Made by a program: the position numbers and the translations under genes
Notes under the pieces: generated by a model
Databases searched by the model: none
What the model saw: only the letters and a program-made list of their open reading frames with translations
What the model was told of the DNA's origin: nothing
From: Thermoleophilaceae bacterium
GTDB lineage: Bacteria > Actinomycetota > Thermoleophilia > Solirubrobacterales > Thermoleophilaceae
Assembly (NCBI GenBank): GCA_036389835.1
Contig: DASVWC010000017.1
Coordinates: 10,877 to 74,876, forward strand
Direction: 5' to 3'
DNA length: 64,000 nt
Part shown: positions 3,191 to 51,969 of the stretch, piece by piece
Position numbering within the stretch: the stretch's first letter is position 1
Layout of the letters: every line of letters starts with the position of its first letter

Positions 3191-3200
3191 GAGGGCCAGT

Positions 3201-4988: not shown

Positions 4989-4994
4989 GGGTGG

Positions 4995-5396: not shown

Positions 5397-5407
5397 GCCC
5401 CTCAGTC

Positions 5408-19836: not shown

Positions 19837-19892
19837 GCCCGTCCAGTCTATGGCGGGCTCAGACTGCGAAGTGTCGGTTAGGCTGCTCGGCC

Positions 19893-35167: not shown

Positions 35168-36160
35168 ATGAAGGACCCCGGGACACAGCCGACCAGCTCC
35201 GACGCGGCGCAGCGCGCCCGCGAGGCCGCCGTGCGGCAGCTCAGGACCGTCACGCGCACGCCGGACCCGGTCGAGGAGCCGACCCGCCCGATCCCCATCG
35301 ACCCCGCCACCAACGGGCACTCCGAGCCCGTCCCCGCCGCCGGCGACGGCGACGGGGGGCGCACGCGGATCGTCGGCCCGCTCGAGGCCGTCCTGCGCCA
35401 TCCCCTCCTCGCCCTGATCCCGCTCGTCCTGCTCGTGGCGGGCGGCGCCTATCTCGCCAGCGCCCGCACGCCCGAGTACACGGCGAAGGCGCGCGTGAAC
35501 GTCGGCCGCGCCGACATCCCCGCCTACGTCCTCCAGAACGCGAGCTACGGCAACCAGGTGGTCGCCGCCAGCTACGCGCGCAGCATCGACGCCGCGCCCG
35601 TCGTCCAGGCCGCCGCCCAGCAGACCGGGCTGCCGGTCGGCACCGCGCGCGACCGGCTGAGCGCCACCACGATCCCGGACAGCACGCTGATCCAGGTCGA
35701 GGCCACCGGCCCCTCGTCCAACGACGCGAGCGGCCTCGCGAACGCCGGCGCGCGCTCGCTGATCGCCTACCTCAAGCGGATCACCCGCAGCGACGAGGGC
35801 GCGCGAGCGCTGCGCCGCTACCGCGACGCCCAGGCGGTCCTACGGCGGCTCGAGCTTCGGCTCGACCGGCTGCGGAGGTCGAACGCCAACGCCCGCCGCG
35901 TCGCGCGCGCGCAGCTCGCGGTCGACGCCGCCGGCCTCGAGGCCTCGCAGTACGCGAACCTCTACCGCCAGGCCGAGACCGCCGAGGGATCCTCCAGCGC
36001 GCCGTTGACGCTGCTCGCCCCGGCCGCGAAGGCCGACTCCGACCGGCGCAGCGTGCTCGAGCAGACGATCGTCATCGCCCTCGCCGCCGGGCTCGTGCTC
36101 GGCGTCGGGCTCGCGCTGCTCGCCGCCAACTGGCGGACGCTGCGCGCCCTCCGGGAGTGA
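35168..36160 (+). CDS. Wzz-like polysaccharide co-polymerase / chain-length determinant (no kinase domain)
   Basis: 330 aa. One N-terminal TM (LLALIPLVLLVAGGAYLA) and one C-terminal TM flank a coiled-coil-rich periplasmic-type domain. Confidence 0.7.
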   Translation: MKDPGTQPTSSDAAQRAREAAVRQLRTVTRTPDPVEEPTRPIPIDPATNGHSEPVPAAGDGDGGRTRIVGPLEAVLRHPLLALIPLVLLVAGGAYLASARTPEYTAKARVNVGRADIPAYVLQNASYGNQVVAASYARSIDAAPVVQAAAQQTGLPVGTARDRLSATTIPDSTLIQVEATGPSSNDASGLANAGARSLIAYLKRITRSDEGARALRRYRDAQAVLRRLELRLDRLRRSNANARRVARAQLAVDAAGLEASQYANLYRQAETAEGSSSAPLTLLAPAAKADSDRRSVLEQTIVIALAAGLVLGVGLALLAANWRTLRALRE

Positions 36161-37555: not shown

Positions 37556-38917
37556 TCAGAGCGCGTTCGAGTAGACGACCGTCACGCAGCCGGCGAGCTG
37601 GAGCACGCTGAGCGCAGCCATCGCCGCGAGCGCCCGCCGGCGCGCCGGCCCCTCGCGTGCCGCGCCGCCGCGCCCGGCGAGGACGATCGCGGCGAGCAGC
37701 GCGAGCACCGCGAGCACGGTCGGCTCGAAGTAGCGCTGGTAGGTCCTGTTCGTGCTGGTCTGGGCGAGGACGAGCGACGCGAGCACGACCATGAGCACGA
37801 GCGCCGGCCGCGTCATCGCGGCGCGCTCGGCCGCCCGCCACAGCGCCACCAGCAGGACCGCGCCGGCTGGTGCGAGCACCGCGATCACCAGCGAGCGGTC
37901 GGCCACCACCGGCCCGAGGTCGACGAGCTTCCAGAGGCCGCCGCCGGTCCGCCGGCCCTCGAGCTCGGCGGACTCGGAGGTGGGAACCGCGAGCGCGAAG
38001 GCCAGCGCCGCCGCCGCGGCCACGCGCGGCGCGCGCCCGCGCAGGAGGTCGGAGCGATCGACCACCGGCACCGCGAAGAACGCCCCGAAGATGCCCACCA
38101 GGCCGAGCGTGAACGGGGCGGCGGCGGGGCTGAAGCCACCCTGCTGGACGGTCGGCGGCGTCGTCTGGCCCCAGGCCGCGAACAGCGCGGCGAGGCTGGC
38201 GAGCGCGGGAATCAGGGCCGCGCCGGCCAGGACGACCGGGCGCAGGCTCCGCCGGCCGCCCGCGGCCGGCGCGAAGCCGGGGATCAGCCCGCCGGCGAGC
38301 GCCGCCGCGAAGGCGAACGGCCCCGCGACCCAGAGCGCGAGCTGGCGCACCCAGATCGCCAGGAAGACGAACGCGCCACCGGTCGCGAAGCCGCGCCCGC
38401 TCTCCTGGAGGCGCAGCGACAGCCCGATCGCCAGCAGGATGAACAGCATCGCGGCGTTGTCGGTGTTGATCCAGGCCGCCGACTGGAGCACGTAGTGCGA
38501 GAGCAGGATCGGGAGCGTGAGCGCGAGCGCGAGCCAGCGATCGACGTAGCGGCACATCAGCCAGAACGCGACCAGCACCATCGCCAGCGAGAAGGTCGCG
38601 CCGAACGCCTCGAGGGCGGCGCGCTCGGGCGTCAGCAGCCGCGCGAACACGCTCAGCACCAGGTGGTAGCCGGGCGTCGTCGCGGTCGGGATGTTCACGA
38701 GATCCGGCGTGGGCAGCTCGTAGCCGATCTTGAGCGCCGTCGGCAGGTGGAAGCCGCGCTCGTCGACGGCGCCAGCAGTGCCCGCCCCGCCCGACACGAT
38801 CACCGGCGTGACCAGCGCCACGAAGACCGCGGTCAGCAGGAGCTCGGGCGCGCGCTTGCGCGCCGCCGCGGACAGCCGCCCGAGGAGCGGCGCGCGCAGG
38901 GGCGGGGACGCTCTCAC
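37556..38917 (-). CDS. Polytopic membrane protein, GT-C-like
   Basis: 453 aa with more than 10 TM helices. The first loop is DERGFH...TTPGYHLVL, which recalls the PPGYP loops of the two PMT_2-like paralogs. It lies 30 nt downstream of the lasso-leader/LPXTG gene on the same strand. Confidence 0.7.
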   Translation of the reverse strand: MRASPPLRAPLLGRLSAAARKRAPELLLTAVFVALVTPVIVSGGAGTAGAVDERGFHLPTALKIGYELPTPDLVNIPTATTPGYHLVLSVFARLLTPERAALEAFGATFSLAMVLVAFWLMCRYVDRWLALALTLPILLSHYVLQSAAWINTDNAAMLFILLAIGLSLRLQESGRGFATGGAFVFLAIWVRQLALWVAGPFAFAAALAGGLIPGFAPAAGGRRSLRPVVLAGAALIPALASLAALFAAWGQTTPPTVQQGGFSPAAAPFTLGLVGIFGAFFAVPVVDRSDLLRGRAPRVAAAAALAFALAVPTSESAELEGRRTGGGLWKLVDLGPVVADRSLVIAVLAPAGAVLLVALWRAAERAAMTRPALVLMVVLASLVLAQTSTNRTYQRYFEPTVLAVLALLAAIVLAGRGGAAREGPARRRALAAMAALSVLQLAGCVTVVYSNAL

Positions 38918-39415: not shown

Positions 39416-39483
39416 GTCACCTTAGACTCTACGCCAGAGCAGGCGAAATCGCGCCGAGTCCTCAGTAAGCTGCCGCCCGCGCG

Positions 39484-40581
39484 ATGACCGACACCGGGGC
39501 CATACCGCTGTCGGTCGTGATCCCCGCCTACAACCGGGAGACGATGATCGCGCGCGCCGTGGCCAGCGCCTGGGGCCAGCACCCGCGCCCGCCCGCCGAG
39601 GTGATCGTGGTGGACGACTGCTCCACCGACCGCAGCGGCGCCGTGGCGGCCGAGCTCGGCGCGCGGGTGATCCGCCACGAGCAGAACCGCGGCCTGGGCG
39701 CCTCGCGCAACACGGGCATCCGCGCGGCCACGCAGCCGTGGATCGCCCTGCTCGACTCCGACGACGAGTGGCTACCGCACCTCCTCGACGCGCTCTGGCG
39801 GCTGCGCGACGACCACATTCTCGTCGGCCTCGCGTCGCTCAACTGCGGGGACGACCCGGCGTACGACCGCTTCGCGGGCCCCACCGGGCGCCGGCCGGTC
39901 GTCCTCGAGTCGCCGGCCCGGCTCCTCTACCCGGAGAACTACATCGCCGCCAGCGGCACGATGGTGCGCGCCGACGCGGTGGCGGCGGTCGGCGGCTACC
40001 GCGAGGACCTCAGCCACGGCGAGGACCTCGACCTGTGGCTGCGCGTGCTCGAGCACGGCAGCGGCATCGTCGCGCCGATGGTGGGCGTGATCTACCACCT
40101 GCACGCGGGCCAGGTCACCCGCGACCAGGTCACGATGGCGGCCCGGCAGCTCGACGTCCTGCGCTCGTACTCGGACAGGAGCTGGTGGTCGTCGGCCCGC
40201 GTGGAGGCGTGGCGGGCCGGCAGCGCCTGGGACGAGCTGCGCCGCGGCGACGGGCGCACGGTCGCGCGCTGCGCCGCGTTCATCGCCCGCCACCCGTCGC
40301 GGATCGCCGGGCTCGGCGGCCTGCTCCTGAGGCGCTGGCGCCTGCGCCGGCGGAGCGCCTCGGTCACGCGCGCCGGGACGCCGACGGTCGCCGTCCTCGC
40401 GGGCCGGCGGGTTCCGCTCGCCGGCCTCGTCTCGCTCGTGCGGCGCCCGCCGGGGGTCGCCGTGGTGGACTCGCCGGCGCAGCGCGCGCTGGTGCGCGCG
40501 CTCGGCATCCGGCCGGCCCGGCAGTCCGAGCTGCCCGACCTGGTGCGGCGGCCGTGGTCTCCGGACGGGACGCTCTCGTGA
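39484..40581 (+). CDS. Glycosyltransferase family 2
   Basis: 365 aa with LSVVIPAYNRE, VIVVDDCSTD and LLDSDDEW. Confidence 0.85.
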   Translation: MTDTGAIPLSVVIPAYNRETMIARAVASAWGQHPRPPAEVIVVDDCSTDRSGAVAAELGARVIRHEQNRGLGASRNTGIRAATQPWIALLDSDDEWLPHLLDALWRLRDDHILVGLASLNCGDDPAYDRFAGPTGRRPVVLESPARLLYPENYIAASGTMVRADAVAAVGGYREDLSHGEDLDLWLRVLEHGSGIVAPMVGVIYHLHAGQVTRDQVTMAARQLDVLRSYSDRSWWSSARVEAWRAGSAWDELRRGDGRTVARCAAFIARHPSRIAGLGGLLLRRWRLRRRSASVTRAGTPTVAVLAGRRVPLAGLVSLVRRPPGVAVVDSPAQRALVRALGIRPARQSELPDLVRRPWSPDGTLS

Positions 40582-41822
40582 GCCGGCTGCGCTGCGCCTA
40601 CCTGGTCGCCCGCCACCCCGCGGTGACCCAGACCTTCATCTCGCACGAGATCCGCGCCCTCCGCGCGCGCGGCGCCGAGATCGCGACGGCCTCGATCCGC
40701 CGCTCGGCCCGCGGCGAGGCGCTCTCCCCGGCGACCGAGCGCGAGCGGCGCGAGACCTACGCGCTGCTGCCCACCTCTCCCTGGCGCCTCCTGCGCGCGC
40801 ACGCCGCCGCCTTCGCCCACTCCCCGGGCGCCTACCTGCACACGCTCGCCGCCGCGCTGTGGATGGGGCCCGCCGGCGCCCGCAACCGGCTCTGGCAGGT
40901 CTTCTACTTCGCGGAGACGATGCTGCTCTGGCACTGGCTCGCGCGCGAGGACATCCGCCACGTGCACGTGCACTTCGCGAACGTGGCGAGCGACGTGGCG
41001 ATGCTGTGCACGCGCTTCGGCAACCGCTCGGCCCGCGACGGCCGCCGCTGGAGCTGGAGCCTGACGGTGCACGGGCCGACCGAGCTGCTCGACATGAAGG
41101 CGCACAAGCTCGAGCGCAAGGTCCGCTCGGCCGACGCCGTGATCTGCACCAGCGACTTCGTGCGCAGCCAGCTCCTCAGCCTCGTCCCGAGCCCGCAGGG
41201 GACCGAGCTGCTCACGCTGCGCTGCGGCATCGACCGCTCGATCTTCCACCCGGCCGCCGAGCGCGACCCGAACGACCGCGTCGAGATCCTGAACGTCGCC
41301 GGGATGTCCGCCCGCAAGGGCCATCGCTTCCTGCTCGAGGCGCTGGAGACCCTCCACGCCCGCGGAGTGGACTTCCACGCCCGGCTGGTGGGCGACGGCC
41401 CCGAGCGCGACGGGCTCGAGGCCCTCGTCCGCGAGCGCGGGCTCGCGGACCGGGTCGAGTTCATGGGCGCGCTCGGCGAGCACGTCGTGCCCGACCTCTA
41501 CCGCCAGGCCGACGTCTTCTGCCTGCCGTCGTTCGCGGAGGGGGTGCCGACCGTGCTCATGGAGGCGATGGCCACCGGGCTGCCGGTGGTCGCGACGCAC
41601 ATCATGGGGGTGCCGGAGCTGGTCCGGGATGGCAGGACCGGCCTCGTGGTGCCGCCCGCCCGGGCCGACGCCCTCGCCGACGCCCTCGAGGCGCTCGCCC
41701 GCGATCCGGAGCTGCGGCGCAGGCTGGGCGACGCCGCCCGCGAGTGCGTGACCTCGGAGTACGACCTGAATCGCGCGGCGGAGGCCCTCGAGGCCGTCCT
41801 GGCTCGGCTCGCCGAGCGCTGA
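40578..41822 (+). CDS. Glycosyltransferase family 4 (GT-B)
   Basis: The GTG at 40578 overlaps the previous stop (GTGA). The 414-aa protein has AGMSARKGH and PSFAEGVPTVLMEAMATGLPVVAT. Confidence 0.85.
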   Translation: MSRLRCAYLVARHPAVTQTFISHEIRALRARGAEIATASIRRSARGEALSPATERERRETYALLPTSPWRLLRAHAAAFAHSPGAYLHTLAAALWMGPAGARNRLWQVFYFAETMLLWHWLAREDIRHVHVHFANVASDVAMLCTRFGNRSARDGRRWSWSLTVHGPTELLDMKAHKLERKVRSADAVICTSDFVRSQLLSLVPSPQGTELLTLRCGIDRSIFHPAAERDPNDRVEILNVAGMSARKGHRFLLEALETLHARGVDFHARLVGDGPERDGLEALVRERGLADRVEFMGALGEHVVPDLYRQADVFCLPSFAEGVPTVLMEAMATGLPVVATHIMGVPELVRDGRTGLVVPPARADALADALEALARDPELRRRLGDAARECVTSEYDLNRAAEALEAVLARLAER

Positions 41823-41876
41823 GCGGCACGCTTGCAACCGGTGGCGCGCGCCCATGCGCTGTGCTCCAATAACGCG

Positions 41877-42578
41877 GTGACAGGCACCCTGACGCCGGAG
41901 AGCGACCTCGTCCGCGCGGCGACGGCCCCGCCGCTGGCGCTCGACGGGATCGTCAAGCGCTGGCCCGGCGCCCCGCCCGTGCTCGAGGGCGTGAGCCTCA
42001 GGCTCGAGCCGGGCCAGGCCGTCGCGATCTGCGGGCGCAACGGGGCCGGCAAGACCACGCTGCTGCGGATCGCGGCCGGGCTCTTCGGCCCCGACCAGGG
42101 CAGCGTCCGCCTCGACGGCCTCGACCCCGAGCACGACCGGACCGAGTTCCAGCGCCGGCTCGGCTTCCTGTCCGCCGGCAACAGCGGCCTCTACGCCCGG
42201 CTCAAGCCCGAGCATCACCTCGAGCTGTGGTCGCGGCTGGCGCTCGTGCCGAAGCGCCGGCGCGAGGCCGCGATCGCCGGCGCGGTCCGCGCCTTCGAGC
42301 TCGACCCGCTCTGCGGGAAGCGCGTCGACCGCCTCTCGATGGGCCAGCGGCAGCGGCTCCGCCTCGCGCTCGCGTTCCTGCACGAGCCGACCGTCGTCCT
42401 GCTGGACGAGCCGGGCACGAGCCTCGACGACGAGGGCATCGCGATGATCGGGGCCGCGCTCGAGCGCCTCAAGTCGCGCGGCGGCGCCGCCGTCGTTTGC
42501 CTGCCCTCCGGCTGGGAGGCCGTCCCCGCGGTCGACGCGGGCTTCGTCCTCGCGAACGGCCGCCTGGAGCCGGCGTGA
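41877..42578 (+). CDS. ABC transporter ATP-binding protein
   Basis: The Walker A is GRNGAGKTT, the signature is LSMGQRQRL and the Walker B is VVLLDEP. The start is uncertain: GTG 41877 or TTG 41832. Confidence 0.85.
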   Translation: MTGTLTPESDLVRAATAPPLALDGIVKRWPGAPPVLEGVSLRLEPGQAVAICGRNGAGKTTLLRIAAGLFGPDQGSVRLDGLDPEHDRTEFQRRLGFLSAGNSGLYARLKPEHHLELWSRLALVPKRRREAAIAGAVRAFELDPLCGKRVDRLSMGQRQRLRLALAFLHEPTVVLLDEPGTSLDDEGIAMIGAALERLKSRGGAAVVCLPSGWEAVPAVDAGFVLANGRLEPA

Positions 42579-43387
42579 GGTCGGCCGCGGCACTCGCCGG
42601 CGCGGCCGGCGCCATCTGCAAGCGCGACCTGCTCGTCCTGCTCAGCTACCGCACCCGCACGTTCACGATCGTCTTCGGGACGGCGTTCAGCCTCACGCTC
42701 TTCTACTACGTCTCCCGTCTCGTGTCCTCGCCGCGGATCGGCTCGCCGGACGACTACTACGCGTTCGTCGTGGTCGGGCTCGTGATCTTCGGCCTCGTCA
42801 GCTCCACGCTCTCCGCGCCGGTCACGACCCTGCGCGCGGAGCTCCAGGCCGGGACGTTCGAGCGGATGGTGCTCTCGCCCTTCGGCCCCGTCCGGTCGAT
42901 CGCCTCGCTGCTGCTGTTCCCGCTGATCCAGGCGGTCGTGCTGGGGGTCCTGTCGCTCGCCTTCGCCGCGCTCGCGTTCGGGCTCGACGTGCGCTGGTCC
43001 ACGGCCGCGCTGGTCGTGCCGGTCGGGGCCCTCGCTGCGGGCGCGTTCGCGCCGTTCGGGCTGCTGATGACCGCGGCCGCCGTGCTCTTCAAGCAGACCA
43101 GCGCCGGCGCCACCTTCATCATCACCGGGATCACGCTGCTGGCGGGCGTGTACTTCCCGGTCGAGCTGCTGCCGGGCTGGATCCGCTGGGCGTCCGAGGT
43201 GCAGCCGTTCACGCCGGCCGTCGACGTGCTGCGCAACGTGCTCGTCGGCACGCCGCTGCGCAACCCCGCCTGGGAGGACCTCGTCAAGCTCGCGGGCTTC
43301 GCGCTGGCGCTGCTGCCGGTGTCCGCGCTGACGCTGCGCGCGGCCGTCGCTCGCAGCCGCCGGACCGGCACGATCATCGAGTACTGA
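42575..43387 (+). CDS. ABC-2 type transporter permease
   Basis: The GTG at 42575 overlaps the ATPase stop (GTGA). The 270-aa protein has 6 TM helices and the typical ABC-2 region FERMVLSPFGP. Confidence 0.85.
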   Translation: MRSAAALAGAAGAICKRDLLVLLSYRTRTFTIVFGTAFSLTLFYYVSRLVSSPRIGSPDDYYAFVVVGLVIFGLVSSTLSAPVTTLRAELQAGTFERMVLSPFGPVRSIASLLLFPLIQAVVLGVLSLAFAALAFGLDVRWSTAALVVPVGALAAGAFAPFGLLMTAAAVLFKQTSAGATFIITGITLLAGVYFPVELLPGWIRWASEVQPFTPAVDVLRNVLVGTPLRNPAWEDLVKLAGFALALLPVSALTLRAAVARSRRTGTIIEY

Positions 43388-43695
43388 TGGCCGGCTCTCC
43401 TACACCGGGGGACTCGCTCCTGAACGCCCGCGTGCGCGTGCCCGAGCACGTCGTCTACCGCGACTTCGGCGACGAGACGGTGATCCTCAACCTCGACAGC
43501 GGCATGTACCACGGCCTCAACCACACGGCCGCCGCGATGCTCTCCACGCTGGGCGAGAGCGAGTCGGTGGCCGCGGCGATCGACCGGCTCGTCGGCGAGC
43601 TCGGCCAGCCGCGGGAGGTGATCCAGCCCGACGTGCTGGACCTCTGCCACGCACTCGCCGACCGCGGGCTGATCGAGCACGATGGCGGCGACTGA
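43387..43695 (+). CDS. PqqD-family RiPP recognition element (lasso B1)
   Basis: 102 aa with VVYRDFGDETVILNLDSGMYHGLNHTAAAML...LCHALADRGLI. The ATG overlaps the permease stop (TGATG). Confidence 0.85.
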   Translation: MAGSPTPGDSLLNARVRVPEHVVYRDFGDETVILNLDSGMYHGLNHTAAAMLSTLGESESVAAAIDRLVGELGQPREVIQPDVLDLCHALADRGLIEHDGGD

Positions 43696-44662
43696 GCCCG
43701 AGGCCGGCCGGCCCGAGCGCCGCCGCGCGTACGCCTTCGGGCTCGACCTCGACCTCTCGTTCCCGGCGCCCGGCCTGCCGGAGGCGAGCGGCGCGACCGG
43801 CGGGCGCCCCGCGCGCGCCGACCTGGTGGAGCCCGGTGCGATCGACCGCGACTGGCCCGCCGGAGAGGCCGAGGAGGTGCTCGCCGAGCGCTTCGACGAC
43901 GGCGCGGTGGCGCGCACGATCCACGCGCACCCCGAGGCTGGCTACCGGCTCTACGCCCGCCACTTCGGCCTCGCACGCCTGTCGCCGGACGGCGCGCGCA
44001 TCGCCTGCTCGCCGCCCGACGTCGAGCCCTGGAGCTGGCAGCGCTTCCTCGTGGGCCGGATCCTGCCGTGGGCGGCGGTGCTGCGCGGGCTCGAGGCGTT
44101 CCACGCGAGCGCGGTCGAGACCGGCGGCCGCGCCGTGGCGTTCGTGGGCGCGACCGGCGCGGGCAAGACCTCGCTCGCGATCCAGCTCGTGGGCCGCGGC
44201 GCGAGCTTCCTGACCGACGACGTGCTCGCACTCGAGCGCCGCGGCGGCGTGCTCTGGGCGCACCCCGGGGCGGGCATCGCGAGCGTGCGGCCGGCCGAGC
44301 GCGAGACGATCTCCGGCCCGATCTGGGAGCGCCTCGGCTCGGTGCTCGGCGAGAGCGGCAAGACGTACCTGGAGGTTCCGCGCCGCGACGGCCCGGTGCC
44401 GCTCGCGGCGGTGTACTACCTGCGCCCGGGCGGCGACGCCGCGATCGAGCCGTTCGAGCGCCCGGACCCGCGCCTGCTGCTCGCGAGCACCTTCGTGCTC
44501 GGCGTCCGGACCCCGGAGCGGCTCGCCAACCAGCTCGACGTCTGCTCCGCGCTCGCCCGGACCGTCCCCGTGTTCTGGCTCAGGGTGGACGCCGGCGAGG
44601 GCTCGGCGCGGCTCGCCGCCGCCGTCGACGACCACGTGCGGGCGCTGGAGCCGGTCGCGTGA
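43682..44662 (+). CDS. HPr-kinase-related serine kinase (lasso-precursor kinase type)
   Basis: 326 aa with HASAVETGGRAVAFVGATGAGKTSLAIQLVGRGASFLTDDV, which is an HprK C-terminal-domain P-loop. It overlaps the PqqD gene by 14 nt. Confidence 0.8.
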   Translation: MAATEPEAGRPERRRAYAFGLDLDLSFPAPGLPEASGATGGRPARADLVEPGAIDRDWPAGEAEEVLAERFDDGAVARTIHAHPEAGYRLYARHFGLARLSPDGARIACSPPDVEPWSWQRFLVGRILPWAAVLRGLEAFHASAVETGGRAVAFVGATGAGKTSLAIQLVGRGASFLTDDVLALERRGGVLWAHPGAGIASVRPAERETISGPIWERLGSVLGESGKTYLEVPRRDGPVPLAAVYYLRPGGDAAIEPFERPDPRLLLASTFVLGVRTPERLANQLDVCSALARTVPVFWLRVDAGEGSARLAAAVDDHVRALEPVA

Positions 44663-45057
44663 GGCCGACGCCCGCGAACGTCGCGCTCGCCGCCGAGGTG
44701 GTGGCCTCGTACGTCCGCGCGCGGCGGAAGCTGCGGCACGCGGACCTGCGCGTCGCGCTCGCGGACCTGCGCGCGGTGGACTCGCCGCGGCTGCGGCCGC
44801 CCGCCGATCCGATCGACGGCGGGCGCCGGCTCGGCCGCGCGGTCGCGCGCACGCTCGCGCTGCTTCCCGGCGACACCCGCTGCCTGACCCAGTCGCTCGT
44901 GCTCACGCGACTGCTCGCGGCCCGCGGCATGGAGTCGCGGCTCGTGATCGGCGTCCGGCCCGGCGAGCGCTTCGCCGCGCACGCCTGGGTCGAGCACGAC
45001 GGCGTCCCGCTCCTGCCGCCCGGCGCGGACCACTTCGAGGAGCTCGTGACGCTCTGA
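44659..45057 (+). CDS. Lasso peptide leader peptidase B2 (transglutaminase-like Cys protease)
   Basis: The GTG at 44659 overlaps the kinase stop (GTGA). The 132-aa protein has Cys (CLTQSLVL), His (AHAWVE) and Asp (HDG) in the canonical order. Confidence 0.85.
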   Translation: MRPTPANVALAAEVVASYVRARRKLRHADLRVALADLRAVDSPRLRPPADPIDGGRRLGRAVARTLALLPGDTRCLTQSLVLTRLLAARGMESRLVIGVRPGERFAAHAWVEHDGVPLLPPGADHFEELVTL

Positions 45058-45110
45058 CCGCCGCGTTCGCAGGGCGCTACGGACCGGAGGGTCCCGACGC
45101 GGAGGCCCTG

Positions 45111-46832
45111 GTGCGGTCGCTGCGCCGCGACGGTGCGGCCGGCGCGGCGCGGGCCGGGCCGCTGGCGATCGCCTCGACGAGCGGCGTGCACGCGCCGGCA
45201 GGCGGCCCGCTCTGCGTAGTGGACGGCCGTCTCGACGCCGGCCCGCTGGCCCGCGCCGCCGGGCTCGACCCCGCCCTCCCCGCCGCGGAGCTGGTCGCGG
45301 CGGCCTACGCGCGCCTCGGGCCCGCGGCGCTCGACCGCCTCGAGGGGGAGTTCGCGCTGGCCGTCTGGGACGAGCGCGCCGGCCGCGGCGCGCTCGCCCG
45401 CGACCGCCTCGGCGCGCGCCCGGTCTTCCTCGCCGAGCACGCCGGCGCGCTGCTGTTCGCCTCCGAGGTGCGCAACCTGCTCGCGCTGCTGCCGTCGCGC
45501 CCGGCGCCCGACGAGACGGCGATGGCCCACTGGCTGGCGCGCGCGCCGCTCCCGCGCGGACGCACGCTCTACAGCGGCATCCGGCCGCTCCCCGGCGGGC
45601 ACGCGCTCGAGCTGGCCGGCGGCCGCTGGCGCGAGCGGCGCGTGTGGCGCCCGCGCCACGCCGCCGCGCGGCGGCTCGGCGAGCGCGAGGCCGCCGAAGC
45701 CGTGCGCGCCTGCCTCGGCGCCGCCGTCGAGCGCAGCCTGCGCGGCGCCGAGCGCCCGGCGATCCTCCTGAGCGGCGGGCTCGACTCGGCCGCGGTCGCC
45801 GCGGCCGCGAGCGCCGCCGGCACGCGCCCGGCCGCGTACTCGGCGCTGTTCCCCGAGCACCCGGAGGTGGACGAGTCGCAGCGGATCCGGTCGGTGCGCG
45901 AGCGGCTCGGCCTCGACGGCGTCGAGGCCGACCTGGGCGGCGGCAGCGCGATCGAGCGCGCTCGCGAGTTCACGCGCGAGTGGGAGCTGCCGTCGGTCTC
46001 CCCGAACCGCTTCGTCTGGGCCCCGCTCCTGGCCCGGGCGCGCGACGACGGCGTCGACGTCGTGCTCGACGGGGCGGGCGGCGACGAGCTGTTCGGCTGC
46101 GCGCGCTACCTGGTCGCCGACGAGCTGCGCCGCGGCGCCCCGCTCGCGGCCGTGCGGGTCGCCCGCCGGCTGCCGGGCATGGGCTCGAGCCCGCCGCCGC
46201 GCTGGATCGCGCGCGCGCTGGCGACCTACGGGCTGCGCGCCGCGCTCCCCCACCGGCTGCACGAGCGGCTGCGCGCCGCGCGCGGCCGCTCGGGCGGACC
46301 GGACTGGCTCGCGGCCGGGGTGACCCACGACCGCTGGAGCTGGAAGCGCGAGCCCGGCCCGCGCTGGTGGGCGCAGCTCGTGCACCTGCTGACGAGCGAC
46401 GAGCTGGGCGTGGCCGACCAGCTCAGGCGCGAGGCGGCGATCCACGGGCTCGAGCTGAGGCACCCGCTGCGCGACCCGGCCCTGATCGACCTCGTGCTCG
46501 AGCTGCCGCCCGAGCTCGGGTTCGACCCGGACCTCGACCGGCCGCTGCTGCGCCGCGCGCTGGCGGGCGAGCTGCCCGACGCCGTCCTGCGCGAGGTCCG
46601 CAAGCCCGCCTTCAACCCGCTGCTGGAGGCCGCGCTGGCGGGCCCTGACCGCCGGGGACTGGCGGCCCTGCTGGCCGCTCCGCCCCCGGAGCTGACCGCC
46701 CTCGTGAGGCCCGGATCCGGCGCCTTCGAGCCATTCGAGGCCGGAAACCGGGCGCCGGGGCGCGCCCTCGAGCTGTGGCGGCTGGTCACGCTCGCGGTCT
46801 GGCTGGACCATCAGGGGGACGGTTCTGCTTGA
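45111..46832 (+). CDS. Lasso peptide macrolactam synthetase C (asparagine-synthetase-like, no Cys nucleophile)
   Basis: The PP-loop is ILLSGGLDSAAV, with DGAGGDELFG also present. The first canonical start is the GTG at 45111. The frame stays open back to a CTG at 45054 that overlaps the B2 stop, and the extra residues TAAFAG mimic the CGIAG N-terminus. Confidence 0.85.
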   Translation: MRSLRRDGAAGAARAGPLAIASTSGVHAPAGGPLCVVDGRLDAGPLARAAGLDPALPAAELVAAAYARLGPAALDRLEGEFALAVWDERAGRGALARDRLGARPVFLAEHAGALLFASEVRNLLALLPSRPAPDETAMAHWLARAPLPRGRTLYSGIRPLPGGHALELAGGRWRERRVWRPRHAAARRLGEREAAEAVRACLGAAVERSLRGAERPAILLSGGLDSAAVAAAASAAGTRPAAYSALFPEHPEVDESQRIRSVRERLGLDGVEADLGGGSAIERAREFTREWELPSVSPNRFVWAPLLARARDDGVDVVLDGAGGDELFGCARYLVADELRRGAPLAAVRVARRLPGMGSSPPPRWIARALATYGLRAALPHRLHERLRAARGRSGGPDWLAAGVTHDRWSWKREPGPRWWAQLVHLLTSDELGVADQLRREAAIHGLELRHPLRDPALIDLVLELPPELGFDPDLDRPLLRRALAGELPDAVLREVRKPAFNPLLEAALAGPDRRGLAALLAAPPPELTALVRPGSGAFEPFEAGNRAPGRALELWRLVTLAVWLDHQGDGSA

Positions 46833-46857
46833 AGAGGGCGTTTCAGATGCGTATATT
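46829..46857 (+). promoter_or_regulatory. Sigma-70-like promoter in front of the precursor gene
   Basis: TTGAAG (46829-46834), a 17-nt spacer, then TATATT (46852-46857). It sits in a locally AT-richer patch of an otherwise very GC-rich region, about 45 nt upstream of the precursor ATG. Confidence 0.45.
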
Positions 46858-46901
46858 CCGGCGATCTACACGGGGGGCTGCTTTGTGAAGGAGGAGGTGT
46901 A

Positions 46902-47036
46902 ATGGACTACGAGACCCCAATCGTTCTTGACTACGGGACGCTTACGGACCTGACCGCGGGTCAGACCGACGGCAACTTCCTGGACGCGGACTTCCCGTCC
47001 GGAACCCCGAAGGACGAGCTCACCTTCTCCAACTAG
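46902..47036 (+). CDS. Lasso peptide precursor (44 aa; not in the ORF track)
   Basis: The translation is MDYETPIVLDYGTLTDLTA|GQTDGNFLDADFPSGTPKDELTFSN. The strong SD GAAGGAGGAGGTG ends 2 nt before the ATG. The leader motif is Y3-P6-V8-G12-T18 with Thr at the penultimate leader position. The core has Gly1 and Asp9. Confidence 0.8.
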   Translation: MDYETPIVLDYGTLTDLTAGQTDGNFLDADFPSGTPKDELTFSN

Positions 47037-47045
47037 CCCGACCGC

Positions 47046-47071
47046 GGTGCGGCCCGTGAGGCGGCCGCACC
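47046..47071 (+). promoter_or_regulatory. 9-bp perfect hairpin immediately after the precursor stop
   Basis: ggtgcggcc (47046-47054), an 8-nt loop, then ggccgcacc (47063-47071). No U-tract follows. It sequesters the GTG at 47047, the candidate start of the next gene. Confidence 0.5.
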
Positions 47072-48966
47072 ATGGCCGATCGACGCTCGACGCCGCCGTC
47101 GAGCCCGCGGTCGCCCTGGCCGGCTGCGCCGAGCGGCGCGCGGAGCTGCGCGGCGCGGTGCGCCACGCCCTGTCGCGCGCGGACCTCACGCGCCTGGCCG
47201 CCCGGCTCGCGAGCCGCCGCCTGCTGCCGCTGATCGGAACGCGGGCGCTCGAGGCGGCCGGCGACGTCTGCCCGCCCGAGTTCGAGGCGACGGTCACGGG
47301 CGCGCTCGGCGTCGCGAGGGCCCGCGCGCTCGCGGTCGAGGCCGCCACCCGTGACGTGACGGCGACCCTCGCCGGGCACGGCATCGCGGCACTGCCGCTC
47401 AAGGGGCCGCTGCTCGCGGAGGCGCTCTACGGCGACACCGGCCTGCGCGAGACCGCCGACGTGGACCTGCTCGTCCCGCGCGAGCGGCTCGCCGGCGCCG
47501 CGGCGCTGCTGCGCCAGGACGGCTACGCGGCTCCCGCCGACCCGCTGCGCGCCGACGGCCTGCCCGACCTTCACCTCGCGCTCGACCATCCCCGGCGGCC
47601 GTCGGTCGAGCTGCACTGGCGCGTCCACTTCTACGAGGACGAGTTCGCGCGCGACATGCTCGAGCGGGCCGAGCCGGGGCCCGACGGGCTGCTGCGCGCG
47701 CGCCCGGCCGACCTGCTCGCGTCGCTGCTGCTGTTCTACGCGCGCGACGGCTTCTACGGGCTGCGGCTGGCGGCCGACATAGGCGCGTGGTGGGACCGCT
47801 ACGGCCGCGCCGGCGACCGGCCGCTCGAGGAGCACGCGCGCCGCTACCCGCGCCTCGCCCCGGCGCTCACCGCGGCGGCGGTCGCCGCCGAGCGCGTGAC
47901 GGGCGCCCCGGCGGCCGGCTGGCTCGGCGGCGCCGCGGCGCACGGCCGCCGGACCGCCATGGCGGCCGGGCTGGCCAACCCCACCTACAGCGGCGAGCGC
48001 GACCAGCTCGCGGCCAACATCTCGCTCGCGGACGCGCTGCTCGCCCCGCCTGGCACGGTCGCCGAGTTCGCCCGGCGCGAGCTGGTGCCGCGCTCGGGCC
48101 CGGCGGCCCCGCACGCCGCCAAGATGCTCGCCCGCTACGGCGCGGCGGCGTGGCGCGTGCGCGGCGGCCGCGAGTGGGCGGCGGGGCCGGCGGGCGGCGG
48201 GCCCGCCGTCGAGCTGCTCGGGCTGCGGCTCGACCGCGTGAGCGAGGCCGAGGCGATCGATCACGTGATCGGCGCCCTGGACGCCGGGCGCGGCGGCTGG
48301 CTGCTCGCGATGAACCTCGACACGCTGCGCCAGTACGCGCGCTCGGAGGAGCTGCCGGCGCTGTTCGAGCGGGCGGACCTGATCGTGGCCGACGGCATGC
48401 CGCTGATCTGGGCGAGCCGCCTGGCGGGGACGCCGCTGCCCGCGCGGGTCGCGGGGTCGGACCTGATCTGGTCGCTCACGGCGGAGGCGGCGCGGAACGG
48501 GCGGTCGGTGTTCCTGCTCGGCGGGGCGCCGGGCGTCTGCGAGCGCGCCGCCGACGCCCTGCGCGCGCGCTCTCCCGGCCTGGCCGTGGCCGGCACCCAC
48601 TCGCCGCCGTACGGCTTCGAGAGCGACGCCGCCGAGCTCGACGCGATCCGCGCGCGCCTGCGCGAGGCGCGCCCCGACGTCGTCTACGTCGGGCTCGGCT
48701 TCCCCAAGCAGGAGCGCCTGATCGCGCAGCTCAGAGACGAGCTGCCGCGCTCCTGGTTCGTGGGCGTGGGCATCTCGTTCAGCTTCGTGACCGGCGACGT
48801 GCCGCGGGCACCCGCCTGGCTCCAGCGGATCGGCCTCGAGTGGGTCCACCGGCTGACGAAGGAGCCGCGGCGGCTGGCGCGCCGCTACCTCGTCGACGAC
48901 CTGCCGTTCGCCGCCCGGCTGGCCGCCCACAGCCTCGCGCGGCGGGCGCGCGGCGGTCGCGGCTAG
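47047..48966 (+). CDS. Fusion protein: NTP_transf_5-type nucleotidyltransferase (N-terminal) plus WecG/TagA/CpsF family GT26 glycosyltransferase (C-terminal)
   Basis: 639 aa. The N-terminal half has LPLKGPLLAEALYGDTGLRETADVDLLV...VELHWRV. The C-terminal half, from about nt 48220, has LLGLRLDRVS...ADGMPLIWASRL...VYVGLGFPKQE...GVGISFSF. The start is uncertain. Confidence 0.8.
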   Translation: MRPVRRPHHGRSTLDAAVEPAVALAGCAERRAELRGAVRHALSRADLTRLAARLASRRLLPLIGTRALEAAGDVCPPEFEATVTGALGVARARALAVEAATRDVTATLAGHGIAALPLKGPLLAEALYGDTGLRETADVDLLVPRERLAGAAALLRQDGYAAPADPLRADGLPDLHLALDHPRRPSVELHWRVHFYEDEFARDMLERAEPGPDGLLRARPADLLASLLLFYARDGFYGLRLAADIGAWWDRYGRAGDRPLEEHARRYPRLAPALTAAAVAAERVTGAPAAGWLGGAAAHGRRTAMAAGLANPTYSGERDQLAANISLADALLAPPGTVAEFARRELVPRSGPAAPHAAKMLARYGAAAWRVRGGREWAAGPAGGGPAVELLGLRLDRVSEAEAIDHVIGALDAGRGGWLLAMNLDTLRQYARSEELPALFERADLIVADGMPLIWASRLAGTPLPARVAGSDLIWSLTAEAARNGRSVFLLGGAPGVCERAADALRARSPGLAVAGTHSPPYGFESDAAELDAIRARLREARPDVVYVGLGFPKQERLIAQLRDELPRSWFVGVGISFSFVTGDVPRAPAWLQRIGLEWVHRLTKEPRRLARRYLVDDLPFAARLAAHSLARRARGGRG

Positions 48967-50360
48967 CGGTCGCGGTCCGGGTCGTCCACGCAGCCCCTGC
49001 CGCGCGGCTGCGCCAGGGCCTGGAGCTTTCGCCACGGGAAGTTCGCGAGCACACCCTGGCTGTCGGGCGACCTGCCCTCGAAGATCTCCACGTACGGGTC
49101 GTAGCCGAGCGGCGTCGGGTCCTCGGCGGCGAACCCGATCTCGGTCGAGGCGTCGGTCACGACCAGGCCGTATCGCTGTATGGCGCGCGCGATCGTGAGC
49201 GCGTAGCGCGACAGCGGGTGGCGCGGGTCGCTCGCGTAGGCGGCGAGGTCGAAGCGCGCCGGGAAGCGGAAGCGGGCGCCCGCCGGGATCGACTGCGGCG
49301 CGCGGCTCGAGCGCTCCGGGTCGGTCCGCTGCGCGGGCCAGCACCAGCCGTCGCGGCCGCCCCTGCCGATCACGACGAGGCCGATCGCGTGCTCCACCGC
49401 GCCGCGGCGCAGCTCCTCGATCCGCTGGAGCCCCGACATCAGCGCGATCGAGGTGGCCGACGCGCCGTACTGCGGGCCCGGCGGATCCACGAAGTGGCCC
49501 TCGTTCTGCGAGACGTGCGGCATCCGGCCGCCGTAGCGGGCGCGCCAGGTGCCGAACAGCGGGTCCTTCGACAGCCCCCAGAACTCCCAGAGCGTGTCCG
49601 TCGCGGGCTGCCAGAGGATCAGGTTCCCGTCGGTGCCCGCGGCCGGTCGCGCGTCGGCGGGCAGCGGGACCGCGTCCCACTGCCGCTGGAGCGCGGGCGC
49701 GCCCTCGGGCGCCGCGACCCGTACCGCCGGCTGGTCCGGACCGACGGTGTAGATCGGCGAGCTGTACTGCGTGGTGCCGATCAGCGCGCCGCGCGGGCGG
49801 CTGCGCACCTGCGAGCGGATCTCCGCGACCATCGCCGCCGAGTTGCCCGCCAGCGGAGCGTTCTTCTTCAGCCGCTTGTTGCGCCAGCCGCCGGGCGAGA
49901 ACGGCTCCGCGACGAGCGTCATCGTGTCGATCCAGGCGCTGCGCTGGCAGGTGAGGCTCGAACCGGACCCCTCGACGATCCCCACGGACACCGCGTGCGG
50001 CCCCGCCGGCACCGACAGGCGCGCGCCGAGCTCGCCGTAGCCCGCTCCCGCGAGGCCCACGAAGCGCTCCACGCCGTCGACCTTGATCGACACGGTGGGC
50101 AGCCCGAAGCAGTCGTTCCCCCGAACGCGCGCGAAGACGTGGACCGACGTGCGCGTGGTGGTCATCACGCCCTCGGCGGCGCTCCCGGCGGCGATGCGCA
50201 GCGCCCGCCCGCTCGAGGCATTCGCATCGGGCTCGACCGCGCCGGGGCCGACCGGGGTGAGCAGCTCGCCCTCGATCGTCACGTCGGCCGCGCCCGCGGG
50301 CGCGGCGAGAAACGCGAAGGCGGCCGCGGCCGTGGCGAGCACGCGGCGCACGTCGGGCAT
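48963..50360 (-). CDS. Secreted protein of unknown function (signal peptide plus beta-sandwich-like N-domain)
   Basis: 465 aa from the ATG at 50360. MPDVRRVLATAAAAFAFLAAPAGAADV looks like a Sec signal with an AXA cleavage site. I recognise no family for the remainder. Confidence 0.65.
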   Translation of the reverse strand: MPDVRRVLATAAAAFAFLAAPAGAADVTIEGELLTPVGPGAVEPDANASSGRALRIAAGSAAEGVMTTTRTSVHVFARVRGNDCFGLPTVSIKVDGVERFVGLAGAGYGELGARLSVPAGPHAVSVGIVEGSGSSLTCQRSAWIDTMTLVAEPFSPGGWRNKRLKKNAPLAGNSAAMVAEIRSQVRSRPRGALIGTTQYSSPIYTVGPDQPAVRVAAPEGAPALQRQWDAVPLPADARPAAGTDGNLILWQPATDTLWEFWGLSKDPLFGTWRARYGGRMPHVSQNEGHFVDPPGPQYGASATSIALMSGLQRIEELRRGAVEHAIGLVVIGRGGRDGWCWPAQRTDPERSSRAPQSIPAGARFRFPARFDLAAYASDPRHPLSRYALTIARAIQRYGLVVTDASTEIGFAAEDPTPLGYDPYVEIFEGRSPDSQGVLANFPWRKLQALAQPRGRGCVDDPDRDR

Positions 50361-50454
50361 CGACTGCACGGTGAAATGGTCGCACTTCCACGCCGGTCGG
50401 CGCGCGGTCGCGCTGCTCCGGCACCCGCGGCCGAACCGGTAGCGTCCGGCAACC

Positions 50455-51969
50455 GTGGCTCGGCGAGCGTCGTATTCCGAAGGCGTGGCGTTCGCGGTGC
50501 TGAGCTTCGCCTCGATCGCGGTCGTCGGGCTGGTCAGCAGCATCTTCGTGGCCCGGGCCTACGGCATCGAGCCGATCGGCGAGCTCGCGATCGCGCTGGC
50601 GCCGTCGCTCGCGCTCGCGACGCTGTCCCAGCTCCGCGAGCAGGCCGCCCTCGTGCGCGAGCTGACCCTGCTCGCGCCGCGCGCGCCCCGGGTGACCGGC
50701 CTGTTCGCCGCGGTCATGGCGTTCTCGTTCGGGCTCACGCTGCTGGTCGCGATCCCCGTGACGGCCGCGACCTGGTTCGTCCTGTCCGGCCCGGTCGGCC
50801 GCGACGACCTGTTCGTCCCGGCGCTCGCGCTGATCGGCATCTACACGCTCGTCGAGAACACCTGCTGGAACCTCGACGTCGTGTTCCAGGCCTTCCGCGC
50901 CGGGCGGCCGCTGTTCTGGGTGCGGCTCGACTACGGCGTGACCTACGTGGCGTACGCGCTCGCCATCAACTTCACGTTCGGCGACGACGTCTGGGGGCTC
51001 GTCGCGGCCGCGGGGCTGTCGATCGCGACGTCGCTGGTGCACCGGCTCGTGCTCGTCCGCCACTTCATGCGCTTCCGGGTCCCGCGCGCGGAGATCCGGG
51101 CCGGCTTCCGGACGCTGCCGGCCCTGGTCCGGTTCGGCGCGAAGGTCGCGCCGGGGCAGATCGCCGACGGCGTCTCGCGCCAGGCGAGCGTCTGGGTCCT
51201 GTCGATCACGAGCTCGGTCGCCGCCGTGGGCGCCTACAACCGGGCCTGGATGCTCGCCACGCGCTTTCTCGAGCTCGGTCACCGGGTGGTCGAGATGCTG
51301 TTCCCGACCCTGGTGGAGCGGCGCGCGAACGGCGACTCCGAGGGCTTCGACCGGGCGTCGATCGACACGGTGCGCTACTGCGTGGCCGGCCTGCTGCTGC
51401 CAGCGGCCGCGGGCGGTGGCGCGGCCGACGGGCTCATGGACCTGTTCGGGGACGGGTTCGACCGCGCCGCGGACGCGCTGGCGCTGCTGCTGCTCGCGCC
51501 CGGCCTCGCCGCCGTCGTCTCGATCCTCACGAGCATCCTGTGGACCGACGACCGGCTCTGGCTGAGCACGATCATCACCTCGGTCCGCGCCGCGCTCACG
51601 GTCGGGCTGACGATCGTGCTCGCGATCGAGTACGGCATCACGGGGGCGGCCGTCGCGATCGTCGCGGCGTACCTGGTCGAGTCGGTCTGGTGCTTCGCCG
51701 TGATGCCGCGGCACTGGTCCACCCCGGTGCGGACGCTGTGGCCCTACCGCGGCATGGCCGCGCTCGCGGCCGGATACGCGGCCGGATTCGCCGCGGCGCG
51801 CAGCGTCGACGCGGCTCTCTACGGGGAGGTCGGCACCGCGTGCGCGGTCGCGGCCGGGGCGGTCGTGTACCTGGCGATCGCGGTCGGCGGCGGGCTCCAG
51901 GAGCGCGATCGCGAGCGGCTGGCGGCGATCCGGGGAAGACGCGCCCAGGCACTGCCGACCGAGGGTTAG
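50455..51969 (+). CDS. MOP-superfamily flippase (second Wzx-type protein)
   Basis: 504 aa with about 12-14 TM helices and the polysaccharide-biosynthesis-protein pattern (FGAKVAPGQIADGVS). Confidence 0.75.
   Translation: MARRASYSEGVAFAVLSFASIAVVGLVSSIFVARAYGIEPIGELAIALAPSLALATLSQLREQAALVRELTLLAPRAPRVTGLFAAVMAFSFGLTLLVAIPVTAATWFVLSGPVGRDDLFVPALALIGIYTLVENTCWNLDVVFQAFRAGRPLFWVRLDYGVTYVAYALAINFTFGDDVWGLVAAAGLSIATSLVHRLVLVRHFMRFRVPRAEIRAGFRTLPALVRFGAKVAPGQIADGVSRQASVWVLSITSSVAAVGAYNRAWMLATRFLELGHRVVEMLFPTLVERRANGDSEGFDRASIDTVRYCVAGLLLPAAAGGGAADGLMDLFGDGFDRAADALALLLLAPGLAAVVSILTSILWTDDRLWLSTIITSVRAALTVGLTIVLAIEYGITGAAVAIVAAYLVESVWCFAVMPRHWSTPVRTLWPYRGMAALAAGYAAGFAAARSVDAALYGEVGTACAVAAGAVVYLAIAVGGGLQERDRERLAAIRGRRAQALPTEG

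Follow-up and report, generated by a model that had tools for sequence, protein, structure and literature searches.

The 64,000-nucleotide stretch of DNA analysed here (hereafter, the window) belongs to the genome of a soil actinobacterium of the Thermoleophilaceae (NCBI GenBank assembly GCA_036389835.1, contig DASVWC010000017.1, positions 10,877 to 74,876 of the forward strand; G+C ~75%), and carries a cluster of genes for a lasso peptide, a peptide that is ribosomally synthesised and then modified after translation (RiPP), within a large region of envelope-glycan genes. On balance, we think it probable that this is a lasso cluster of the phosphorylated and glycosylated type whose tailoring is functionally plugged into the surrounding glycan locus, the polysaccharide machinery probably decorating small peptides as well as surface proteins. 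A functional link between the two gene sets is suggested by a conserved fusion of an NTP_transf_5 nucleotidyltransferase-fold domain to a GT26 glycosyltransferase domain, by synteny that survives rearrangement, by the division of NTP_transf_5 enzymes into two clades and by a precedent in Bacilli. New here are the actinobacterial variant of the system, the NTP_transf_5::GT26 fusion and a family of leader-bearing wall proteins.

A nucleotidyltransferase–glycosyltransferase fusion in a lasso gene array

The final gene of the array (Table 1) encodes both the NTP_transf_5 and the GT26 (WecG/TagA/CpsF) domain in a single open reading frame (ORF; start at 47047 or 47056, end at 48966) with a third-position G+C (GC3) of 0.98, in agreement with the preliminary description of this DNA, which had assigned both families to one gene. 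Drawn from JGI, ENA, Logan and NCBI, 11 protein clusters with 47–66% identity contain the fusion, and an assembly artefact was rejected because these 11 independent clusters have it. When genome contigs were searched with the whole fusion, matches to the GT26 half dominated, mostly from Planctomycetota, and no full-length fusion was returned; six Solirubrobacterales loci found in this search carried lasso modules.

Both halves of the protein retain their invariant motifs. That of the NTP_transf_5 domain reads KGP..GD.G.R..D.DLLV and includes the D-x-D motif as DVD, with D135 and D137 invariant. An AlphaFold2 (AF2) model of this domain (predicted local distance difference test score 90.8) has MenT1, ANT(2'')-Ia and FKRP as its nearest folds in Foldseek, matches that agree with an earlier Phyre2 result for PsmN, the NTP_transf_5-type enzyme of pseudomycoidin biosynthesis; a sequence search for a solved relative of the domain found none. 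The GT26 domain aligns over its full length with TagA (7mpk; E 7e-33), scores 146.4 bits against TIGR00696 (cutoff 69) and keeps the equivalents of TagA residues D65 (the catalytic Asp of ADGMPL), E210, W211, R214, R221 and R224.

Ahead of the fusion gene, hidden Markov model searches placed the ABC ATPase, ABC-2 permease, PqqD-type protein (B1), HprK-like kinase, leader peptidase B2, cyclase C and precursor A in the families previously proposed for them, the kinase with a sub-threshold score. With A, B1/PqqD, B2 and C all present, the lasso cluster is complete, and the earlier recognition of a kinase and NTP_transf_5 tailoring pair in an Actinomycetota genome, with a gene order of its own, stands. 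The kinase has an intact P-loop (Walker A, GATGAGKTS) and a gene position conserved across relatives; among NCBIfam models it reaches 30 bits for HprK_rel_B (TIGR04355), against a cutoff of 200. Membership of the HPr-rel-A system (TIGR04352/TIGR04353) is not indicated, as the kinase scores 21.9 bits against the kinase A model (cutoff 200) and its PqqD partner 18.8 bits (cutoff 35). The entire 64-kb window contains one PqqD gene and one kinase gene.

Genes were defined by GC3 together with the public gene calls on the source contig, a 331-kb sequence of JGI metagenome 3300034779. Ten co-directional genes (39484–48966) follow one another with a largest gap of 69 nt. Of the start/stop overlaps described previously, GTGA at 42575, TGATG at 43385–43389, the 14-nt overlap at 43682–43695 and GTGA at 44659 can be read from the sequence, as can a further GTGA at 40578 between the GT2 and GT4 glycosyltransferase genes; a CTGA does exist at 45054, yet the likelier start of the cyclase is GTG at 45111, which has GGAGG before it. 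The claim that the operon lies directly behind the GT2 and GT4 genes is borne out by the distance from the GT4 stop at 41822 to the ABC ATPase gene, which is 9 nt to a TTG start or 54 nt to a GTG start, the public call on the contig having 41832. A promoter scan of 37.4–50.7 kb gave one sigma-70-like match (0.2 expected), just ahead of the precursor gene, from which it is separated by a strong ribosome-binding site, AAGGAGGAGG. A sequence scan for terminator-like sites found none.

The ATPase and ABC-2 permease, whose best NCBIfam matches are of the DrrA/DrrB and CcmA types, are likely the exporter of the lasso module. They had also been considered as a possible Wzm/Wzt-type glycan exporter, an identity that we reject on synteny: in all related loci the pair directly adjoins the PqqD, kinase, B2 and C genes, regardless of which glycosyltransferase genes lie nearby, and it travels with the lasso genes even where no glycosyltransferase gene is adjacent.

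Two predicted substrates with a common leader and acceptor-like motif

The 44-aa lasso precursor consists of the leader MDYETPIVLDYGTLTDLTA, with a YxxP motif and Thr at position −2, and the core GQTDGNFLDADFPSGTPKDELTFSN, with Gly1, Asp9 and Ser24. Tyr, Pro, Asp, Gly, Leu and Thr-2 of the leader are invariant among 14 aligned leaders. More than 30 related precursors were recovered from related loci, and every small precursor found has Asp at position 9, counted from the residue after Thr-x, a constancy that fits a nine-residue macrolactam. This Asp is common to two unrelated core types, the second of which has two Cys. The dominant core, GQxDGxFTD-RxFPxNTPKxDLTFS, strongly conserved and the type to which the window's core belongs, is present in ~18 copies, most of which terminate exactly at Ser; in the window the corresponding motif near the C-terminus is ELTFS.

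Among the related loci (designated by L numbers), L085 carries two tandem precursor genes (877–1296) upstream of a fused NTP_transf_5::GT26 gene, their cores differing at two positions (QSDGRF vs QTDGNF). The second core family, (G/A)CLGG..GD....GCKS.., including Asp9, is found in L056 (7157–7336), L057, L151, L157 and L159; it adjoins Bac_transf and GT26 genes or a non-lasso clade of NTP_transf_5, and several of its loci have a second HprK-like kinase paralogue upstream.

The preliminary description had guessed at a leader-bearing protein as an alternative substrate, and a protein with the same leader was indeed found: a 155-aa product encoded on the opposite strand, beyond the 68-nt divergent intergenic region that precedes the array, in which the promoter scan gave no consensus match. 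From N- to C-terminus it comprises the leader YVPPVVTDFGDLVEMT, the sequence DLSFS, a (GGGS)n spacer, NLPFTG, a hydrophobic transmembrane (TM) segment and RRFARRR. DLSFS lies 13 aa after the leader Thr and mirrors the C-terminal ELTFS of the lasso precursor, and the succession of NLPFTG, ~20 hydrophobic residues and RRFARRR is a classic sortase sorting signal. When the window is translated in six frames, the leader motif and [DE]L[ST]FS each have exactly two matches, and these fall in one and the same pair of ORFs; the leader motif is absent from all of 100 shuffled windows. A second lasso substrate was considered for this protein and rejected, since neither Asp nor Glu occupies any of its core positions 7–9.

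An exhaustive phmmer search recovered at least 22 cluster representatives of the 155-aa family, a new family of leader-bearing wall proteins that the window protein defines. All 22 have the leader and a [DG][LM][STA]FS motif; in 19 of them the motif is placed 13 residues beyond the leader Thr, and LPFTG with a 32–35-aa tail is present in 14. An index-based protein search with the 60-aa N-terminus returned zero relatives. Orthologues adjoin lasso modules in L082, L083, L086 and L107, and a motif scan of the window for a sortase gene found none. The spacer is encoded by a 12-nt tandem repeat of five copies (39059–39140) that is likely length-variable.

It has been reported that lasso, linear polyphosphorylated peptide (LPP) and exopolysaccharide (EPS) genes increase together in stationary phase in Paenibacillus (PMC13381572). 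Co-expression of this kind, together with a core sequence that is unusually conserved across loci and so atypical of antimicrobial arms races, would suit a lasso peptide that regulates the glycan pathway or signals to it, such as a biofilm or capsule switch, tied to the glycosyltransferase genes by co-expression only. Such a role leaves unexplained both the enzyme fusion and the leader and acceptor motif held in common with the wall protein, and we consider it very improbable.

Synteny of lasso and glycan genes, and alternative interpretations

As the preliminary description had anticipated of a gene-neighbourhood comparison, the association of lasso genes with glycosyltransferase genes recurs, rearranged, across relatives. 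In L082 and L086 the fusion, or the corresponding gene pair, faces an inverted lasso module; GT26 lies immediately 3' of NTP_transf_5 in L133, and Bac_transf does so in L107; the GT4-to-ABC junction recurs in L096; and in six Solirubrobacterales loci (L055–58, L076 and L079) a lasso module and kinase without NTP_transf_5 are followed by LuxR, Bac_transf and GT26 genes. These recurring partners, Bac_transf and GT26, are the two initiating enzymes of lipid-linked glycan assembly. In L056, the LuxR-type regulator (7494–8207) and the GT26 protein (9938–10825) begin with an identical eight residues, MSKTGIAV, suggesting a duplicated 5' end or translation-initiation region.

A tree of NTP_transf_5 enzymes from 83 loci splits into two clades, and the window enzyme falls in the one linked to lasso genes. 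Members of the other clade are translationally coupled, in glycan loci, to a secreted protein with a carbohydrate-binding module (CBM), and have no lasso genes, kinase or leader peptide nearby. The CBM protein adjoins NTP_transf_5 in ~35 non-lasso loci and in lasso loci, including the window, where it lies next to the fusion gene. Foldseek matched the N-terminal CBM6/35-like module of the window protein alone, and a profile search of the protein against the PDB gave only noise (best, hemopexin at E 0.35). Its family is restricted to Thermoleophilia, with a CBM6/35/60-like module in some members and a 300-aa domain that matches nothing, and in many non-lasso glycan loci the CBM gene overlaps the NTP_transf_5 start by 4 nt (e.g. 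L087, 8940–10004).

Several observations weigh against a functional link between the lasso module and the glycan locus. The modification chemistry is a prediction from sequence, and the match of the kinase to Hpr_kinase_C falls below the Pfam threshold. The window core ends in an extra Asn (...TFSN), making its Ser penultimate rather than C-terminal, and the 155-aa LPFTG protein has no Sec signal, its sole hydrophobic segment being at aa 124–146. The close relative L083 encodes an unfused enzyme with no GT26 within 10 kb, so that the fusion is dispensable for the module. The relatives are all Thermoleophilia, and common descent, as opposed to selection, could account for some of the synteny; a housekeeping flank of Era, YbeY and PhoH is likewise conserved, and some lasso-linked NTP_transf_5 loci have no GT26 or Bac_transf within the available flank. 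The points on L083, on the Thermoleophilia relatives with their housekeeping flank and on the loci with no GT26 or Bac_transf would be expected if the two gene sets were neighbours only, with a phosphorylated and possibly hexosylated lasso peptide used to compete or to signal, the GT2, GT4, GT26, Wzx and Wzy proteins building an unrelated polysaccharide, and the fusion and synteny being tolerated accidents of two gene sets that both lie near the Era/YbeY/PhoH region. We regard this as unlikely, given that the fusion has been maintained across its range of identities with both active sites intact, that the association persists through inversion and reshuffling and is the same in two unrelated core families, that the same embedding evolved in Bacilli (PMC13381572), and that the leader-bearing LPFTG protein connects the peptide machinery with the cell surface.

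Two further points on the unfavourable side concern the substrate of the fused enzyme. The membrane-targeting tail retained by GT26 fits an ordinary lipid-linked acceptor as well as a peptide-linked one, and the sister NTP_transf_5 clade, with no peptide or kinase nearby, means that the primary substrate may be a glycan and not a phosphopeptide. The fusion and the CBM protein would then be primarily polysaccharide enzymes acting on undecaprenyl-PP-linked intermediates, and NTP_transf_5 would transfer or cap a finished or nascent lipid-linked glycan onto phospho-Ser in the manner of LCP-type ligation, the peptide being an end-cap or anchor rather than a primer. The size of the clade paired with the CBM protein in glycan loci, the equivalent of R214 (a proposed lipid-alpha binder) beside the membrane-targeting tail, the adjacency of Bac_transf to NTP_transf_5 in L107 and to the module in L056, and the structural proximity of the domain to FKRP, a phospho-alditol transferase that acts on glycans, are all consistent with this arrangement. 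Against it, PsmN adds no more than one or two hexoses in E. coli, where its cognate glycan locus is absent (PMC6993621), and the window enzyme belongs to the lasso-linked clade and is encoded directly behind the precursor gene and its promoter-like site. We judge a glycan-first role distinctly unlikely.

A proposed tailoring pathway

If lasso tailoring is coupled to the glycan locus, as we favour, then homology suggests that the PqqD protein would bind the leader and that the kinase would phosphorylate the Ser of (D/E)L(T/S)FS on the linear precursor, like PadeK, PsmK and LppK. B2 would cleave after Thr-Ala and C would form the Gly1–Asp9 lactam. By analogy with PsmN, the NTP_transf_5 domain may add a sugar or sugar-phosphate to phospho-Ser, and the fusion suggests that the tethered GT26 domain might use a UDP-sugar to attach a further sugar, in the way that TagA acts on GlcNAc-PP-undecaprenol, before export of the product by the ABC-2 pair. 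The 155-aa protein would be a second, linear substrate of the same RiPP recognition element (RRE), kinase and transferase set, its putative end state being a phospho-glycosylated, sortase-anchored wall protein.

Ser-P(P)-sugar chemically mimics polyprenyl-PP-sugar, the natural acceptor of GT26 enzymes, and a bolder extension, which we hold to be rather doubtful, is that the phospho-Ser of a leader-bearing peptide or protein replaces undecaprenyl phosphate as the primer of glycan assembly. The kinase would make Ser-P, possibly Ser-P-P, and NTP_transf_5 would add the first sugar or sugar-phosphate; the fused GT26 would perform the second step of lipid-linked-type assembly, and the neighbouring GT2 and GT4 enzymes would extend the chain. 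Were this the case, the lasso peptide and the sortase-anchored wall protein would each bear a phosphodiester-linked glycan, an instance of bacterial protein phosphoglycosylation directed by a RiPP leader.

The locus bears on what NTP_transf_5 enzymes do in the biosynthesis of linear phosphopeptides and of lasso peptides that are phosphorylated (PMC6993621, PMC13381572), and its natural fusion nominates a TagA-type GT26 glycosyltransferase as a candidate partner for this poorly understood nucleotidyltransferase. The conserved five-residue acceptor-like motif, common to a lasso peptide and a wall-anchored protein, provides a testable handle, and the sister enzyme clade active in peptide-free glycan loci provides another. 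With this locus the range of the system, so far Bacillota and Proteobacteria, comes to include deep-branching Actinomycetota. Should the coupling prove true, leader-guided RiPP machinery would serve to build envelope glycoconjugates as well as antibiotics.

The surrounding glycan region

From ~0.1 to 53 kb the window is one large glycan region of ~50 kb, with Bac_transf, a full AsnB, many GT2 and GT4 glycosyltransferases, methyl- and acetyltransferases, sulfatase-like proteins, two flippases and a Wzy_C protein. The preliminary description had placed Wzx, Wzy and Wzz genes around the lasso unit; the first two assignments hold (Wzx 31.9 bits, Wzy_C 67.5 bits), whereas Wzz is weak (18.2 bits, below 25.5), the product in question having two TM segments (aa 71–100 and 295–322) in a topology typical of chain-length regulators. 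The 453-aa polytopic membrane protein, encoded 30 nt downstream of the 155-aa leader-bearing gene, had no match in Pfam or NCBIfam searches, and a GT-C-like membrane glycosyltransferase is a candidate identity only.

Further out, adjacent minus-strand genes at 140–3199 encode a short-chain dehydrogenase, an FAD_binding_4/ALO oxidase and a UbiA prenyltransferase, a trio resembling the DprE2/DprE1/UbiA set with which other Actinomycetota produce decaprenyl-phospho-arabinose. At 3201–6997, also on the minus strand, a full-length glutamine-dependent AsnB (Asn_synthase 239 bits; 35% identity to part of the lasso cyclase) adjoins MsrB and a Bac_transf priming transferase, and is the second, polysaccharide-type amidotransferase of the window. 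Two divergent genes of the sulfatase/phosphodiesterase superfamily within the glycan region (18415–20801) may encode phospho-substituent transferases. The HEAT/PBS-lyase-repeat protein has a Pro/Ala-rich tail and recurs next to lasso ABC genes in L082, L086 and L142. An Rfam search of the window gave zero families, and a DNA repeat search of the window nothing meaningful beyond the (GGGS)n coding repeat.

Table 1. Features of the lasso gene array and its flanks, in window coordinates.
Feature	Position	Strand	Evidence or remark
Possible chain-length regulator (Wzz/PCP-like)	35168..36160	+	Pfam Wzz 18.2 bits, below gathering score 25.5; weak assignment
Wzy_C polymerase/ligase-like membrane protein	36157..37554	+	PF04932, 67.5 bits
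Polytopic membrane protein, 453 aa, ~10–12 TM	37556..38917	−	Hydropathy analysis
Leader-bearing surface protein, 155 aa	38948..39415	−	Lasso-type leader and LPFTG sorting signal
Divergent intergenic region, 68 nt	39416..39483	.	Separates the 155-aa gene from the array of 10 plus-strand genes
GT2 glycosyltransferase	39484..40581	+	PF00535, 113.4 bits
GT4 glycosyltransferase (EpsE-like)	40578..41822	+	PF00534, 143.1 bits; NF041876, 228.8 bits, below cutoff
ABC ATPase	41832..42578 (TTG 41832) or from 41877 (GTG)	+	PF00005 ABC_tran, 94.5 bits
ABC-2 permease	42575..43387	+	PF01061 ABC2_membrane, 61.1 bits
PqqD-type RiPP recognition element (B1)	43387..43695	+	PF05402, 50.3 bits
HprK-like P-loop kinase	43682..44662	+	PF07475 Hpr_kinase_C, 25.9 bits, below gathering score 33.3
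Lasso leader peptidase B2	44659..45057	+	NF033537, 77.6 bits (cutoff 33); PF13471 Transglut_core3, 78.6 bits
Asn-synthase-like lasso cyclase C	45111..46832	+	PF00733, 140.9 bits, and GATase_7; NF033535, 162.9 bits, below cutoff
Sigma-70-like promoter match	46829..46857	+	TTGAAG-17-TATATT; just upstream of precursor
Lasso precursor, 44 aa	46902..47036	+	NF033521 lasso leader, 21.6 bits (cutoff 19)
NTP_transf_5 nucleotidyltransferase-fold domain	47056..48180	+	PF14907, 111.7 bits (aa 45–282)
GT26 (WecG/TagA/CpsF) domain, including C-terminal membrane-targeting tail	48202..48966	+	PF03808 Glyco_tran_WecG, 202.9 bits (aa 443–614)
Secreted protein with CBM6/35-like module and ~300-aa C-terminal domain matching nothing	48963..50369 (ORF open to 50543)	−	
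Wzx-type flippase (Polysacc_synt)	50455..51969	+	PF01943, 31.9 bits (gathering score 28.2)
HEAT-repeat protein	52047..53276	+	PF13646, 69.2 bits

Comparison with known systems

The closest described system is that of pseudomycoidin, a phospho-glycosylated lasso peptide of Bacillus pseudomycoides encoded by psmCAKB1B2ND (PMC6993621), whose C-terminal Ser is the site of phosphorylation, as it is in paeninodin (PMC8498205, PMC6993621). Pseudomycoidin and the window have in common the lasso genes A, B1, B2 and C, an ABC exporter and an NTP_transf_5-type enzyme, called PsmN in pseudomycoidin, and the D-x-D metal motif required for PsmN activity is DVD in the window enzyme. The HprK-like kinase of the window is a candidate counterpart of the pseudomycoidin kinase, and its putative acceptor Ser is penultimate in the window peptide, though C-terminal in most orthologous cores. 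They differ in host (Bacillota as opposed to Actinomycetota), in gene order and in the enzyme itself, which stands alone in pseudomycoidin and is fused to GT26 in the window. Their ring acceptors and cores are unrelated, the single ABC gene psmD is replaced by separate genes for an ATPase and an ABC-2 permease, and pseudomycoidin has no second, LPXTG-type substrate.

Paeninodin-type clusters of Paenibacillus likewise make kinase-tailored lasso peptides, some with a nucleotidyltransferase and a sulfotransferase, and often lie in capsule loci (PMC8498205, PMC13381572). The family is described as confined to Bacillota (PMC8498205, PMC13381572); its RREs prefer WxxP leaders in contrast to the YxxP leaders of the window family, and its nucleotidyltransferase is sometimes fused to B2, whereas fusion to a glycosyltransferase, as in the window, has never been reported. 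With a YxxP leader and a Thermoleophilaceae host, the window lies outside the Bacillota paeninodin clade (PMC13381572).

For the long protein, the precedent is in Bacilli, whose capsule loci contain both LPP clusters and lasso clusters of the paeninodin-like kind (Popov et al. 2026, PMC13381572). LPP precursors are 35–200 aa long and have a lasso-like YxxP leader and an internal Ser near the leader that is phosphorylated by an HprK-like kinase (PMC13381572); the 155-aa protein is similarly long, with a lasso-like leader and an acceptor-like Ser motif close by. LPP clusters also co-localise with lasso clusters and polysaccharide loci (PMC13381572), and contain an NTP transferase, LppN, which is inactive in a heterologous host and has been proposed to depend on a partner encoded beyond the core biosynthetic gene cluster (PMC13381572). 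Where LPP clusters have their own RRE, kinase, SipW-like peptidase and MsbA-type pump, the window has one RRE and one kinase, apparently for both substrates, and an ABC-2 type exporter; the genes called up to 10 kb away from the fusion gene, on both sides, include no S26/SipW-like signal peptidase. The long precursor of the window also differs in its LPFTG ending, the LPP paper mentioning no sortase or LPXTG signal (PMC13381572).

The fusion resembles TagA/WecG in its GT26 fold family, catalytic Asp and C-terminal tail residues, all of which are kept (PMC6493773, PMC8784642). TagA stands alone, and its substrate in the synthesis of teichoic acid is GlcNAc-PP-undecaprenol, whereas the GT26 domain of the window is the C-terminal half of a RiPP-tailoring enzyme. 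Davasins, glycosylated by IgtG, are also lasso peptides that carry sugar on Ser (PMC11912497), but by direct O-glycosylation of the mature lasso by a dedicated glycosyltransferase, with no kinase, nucleotidyltransferase or glycan locus (PMC11912497). Literature searches found no lasso work on Thermoleophilia. The preliminary description had believed a hybrid RiPP and glycoconjugate pathway to be undescribed; after publications of 2019 and 2026, phosphoglycosylated lasso peptides (PMC6993621) and capsule-locus clusters for lasso and linear phosphopeptides in Bacilli (PMC13381572) are known, and the part of that claim that holds is the novelty of the actinobacterial variant. In its predicted working the locus resembles the systems for pseudomycoidin and paeninodin, and its long protein resembles an LPP, while standing outside those Bacillota clades by virtue of its YxxP rather than WxxP leader, its host phylum, its different exporter and its lack of a dedicated peptidase.

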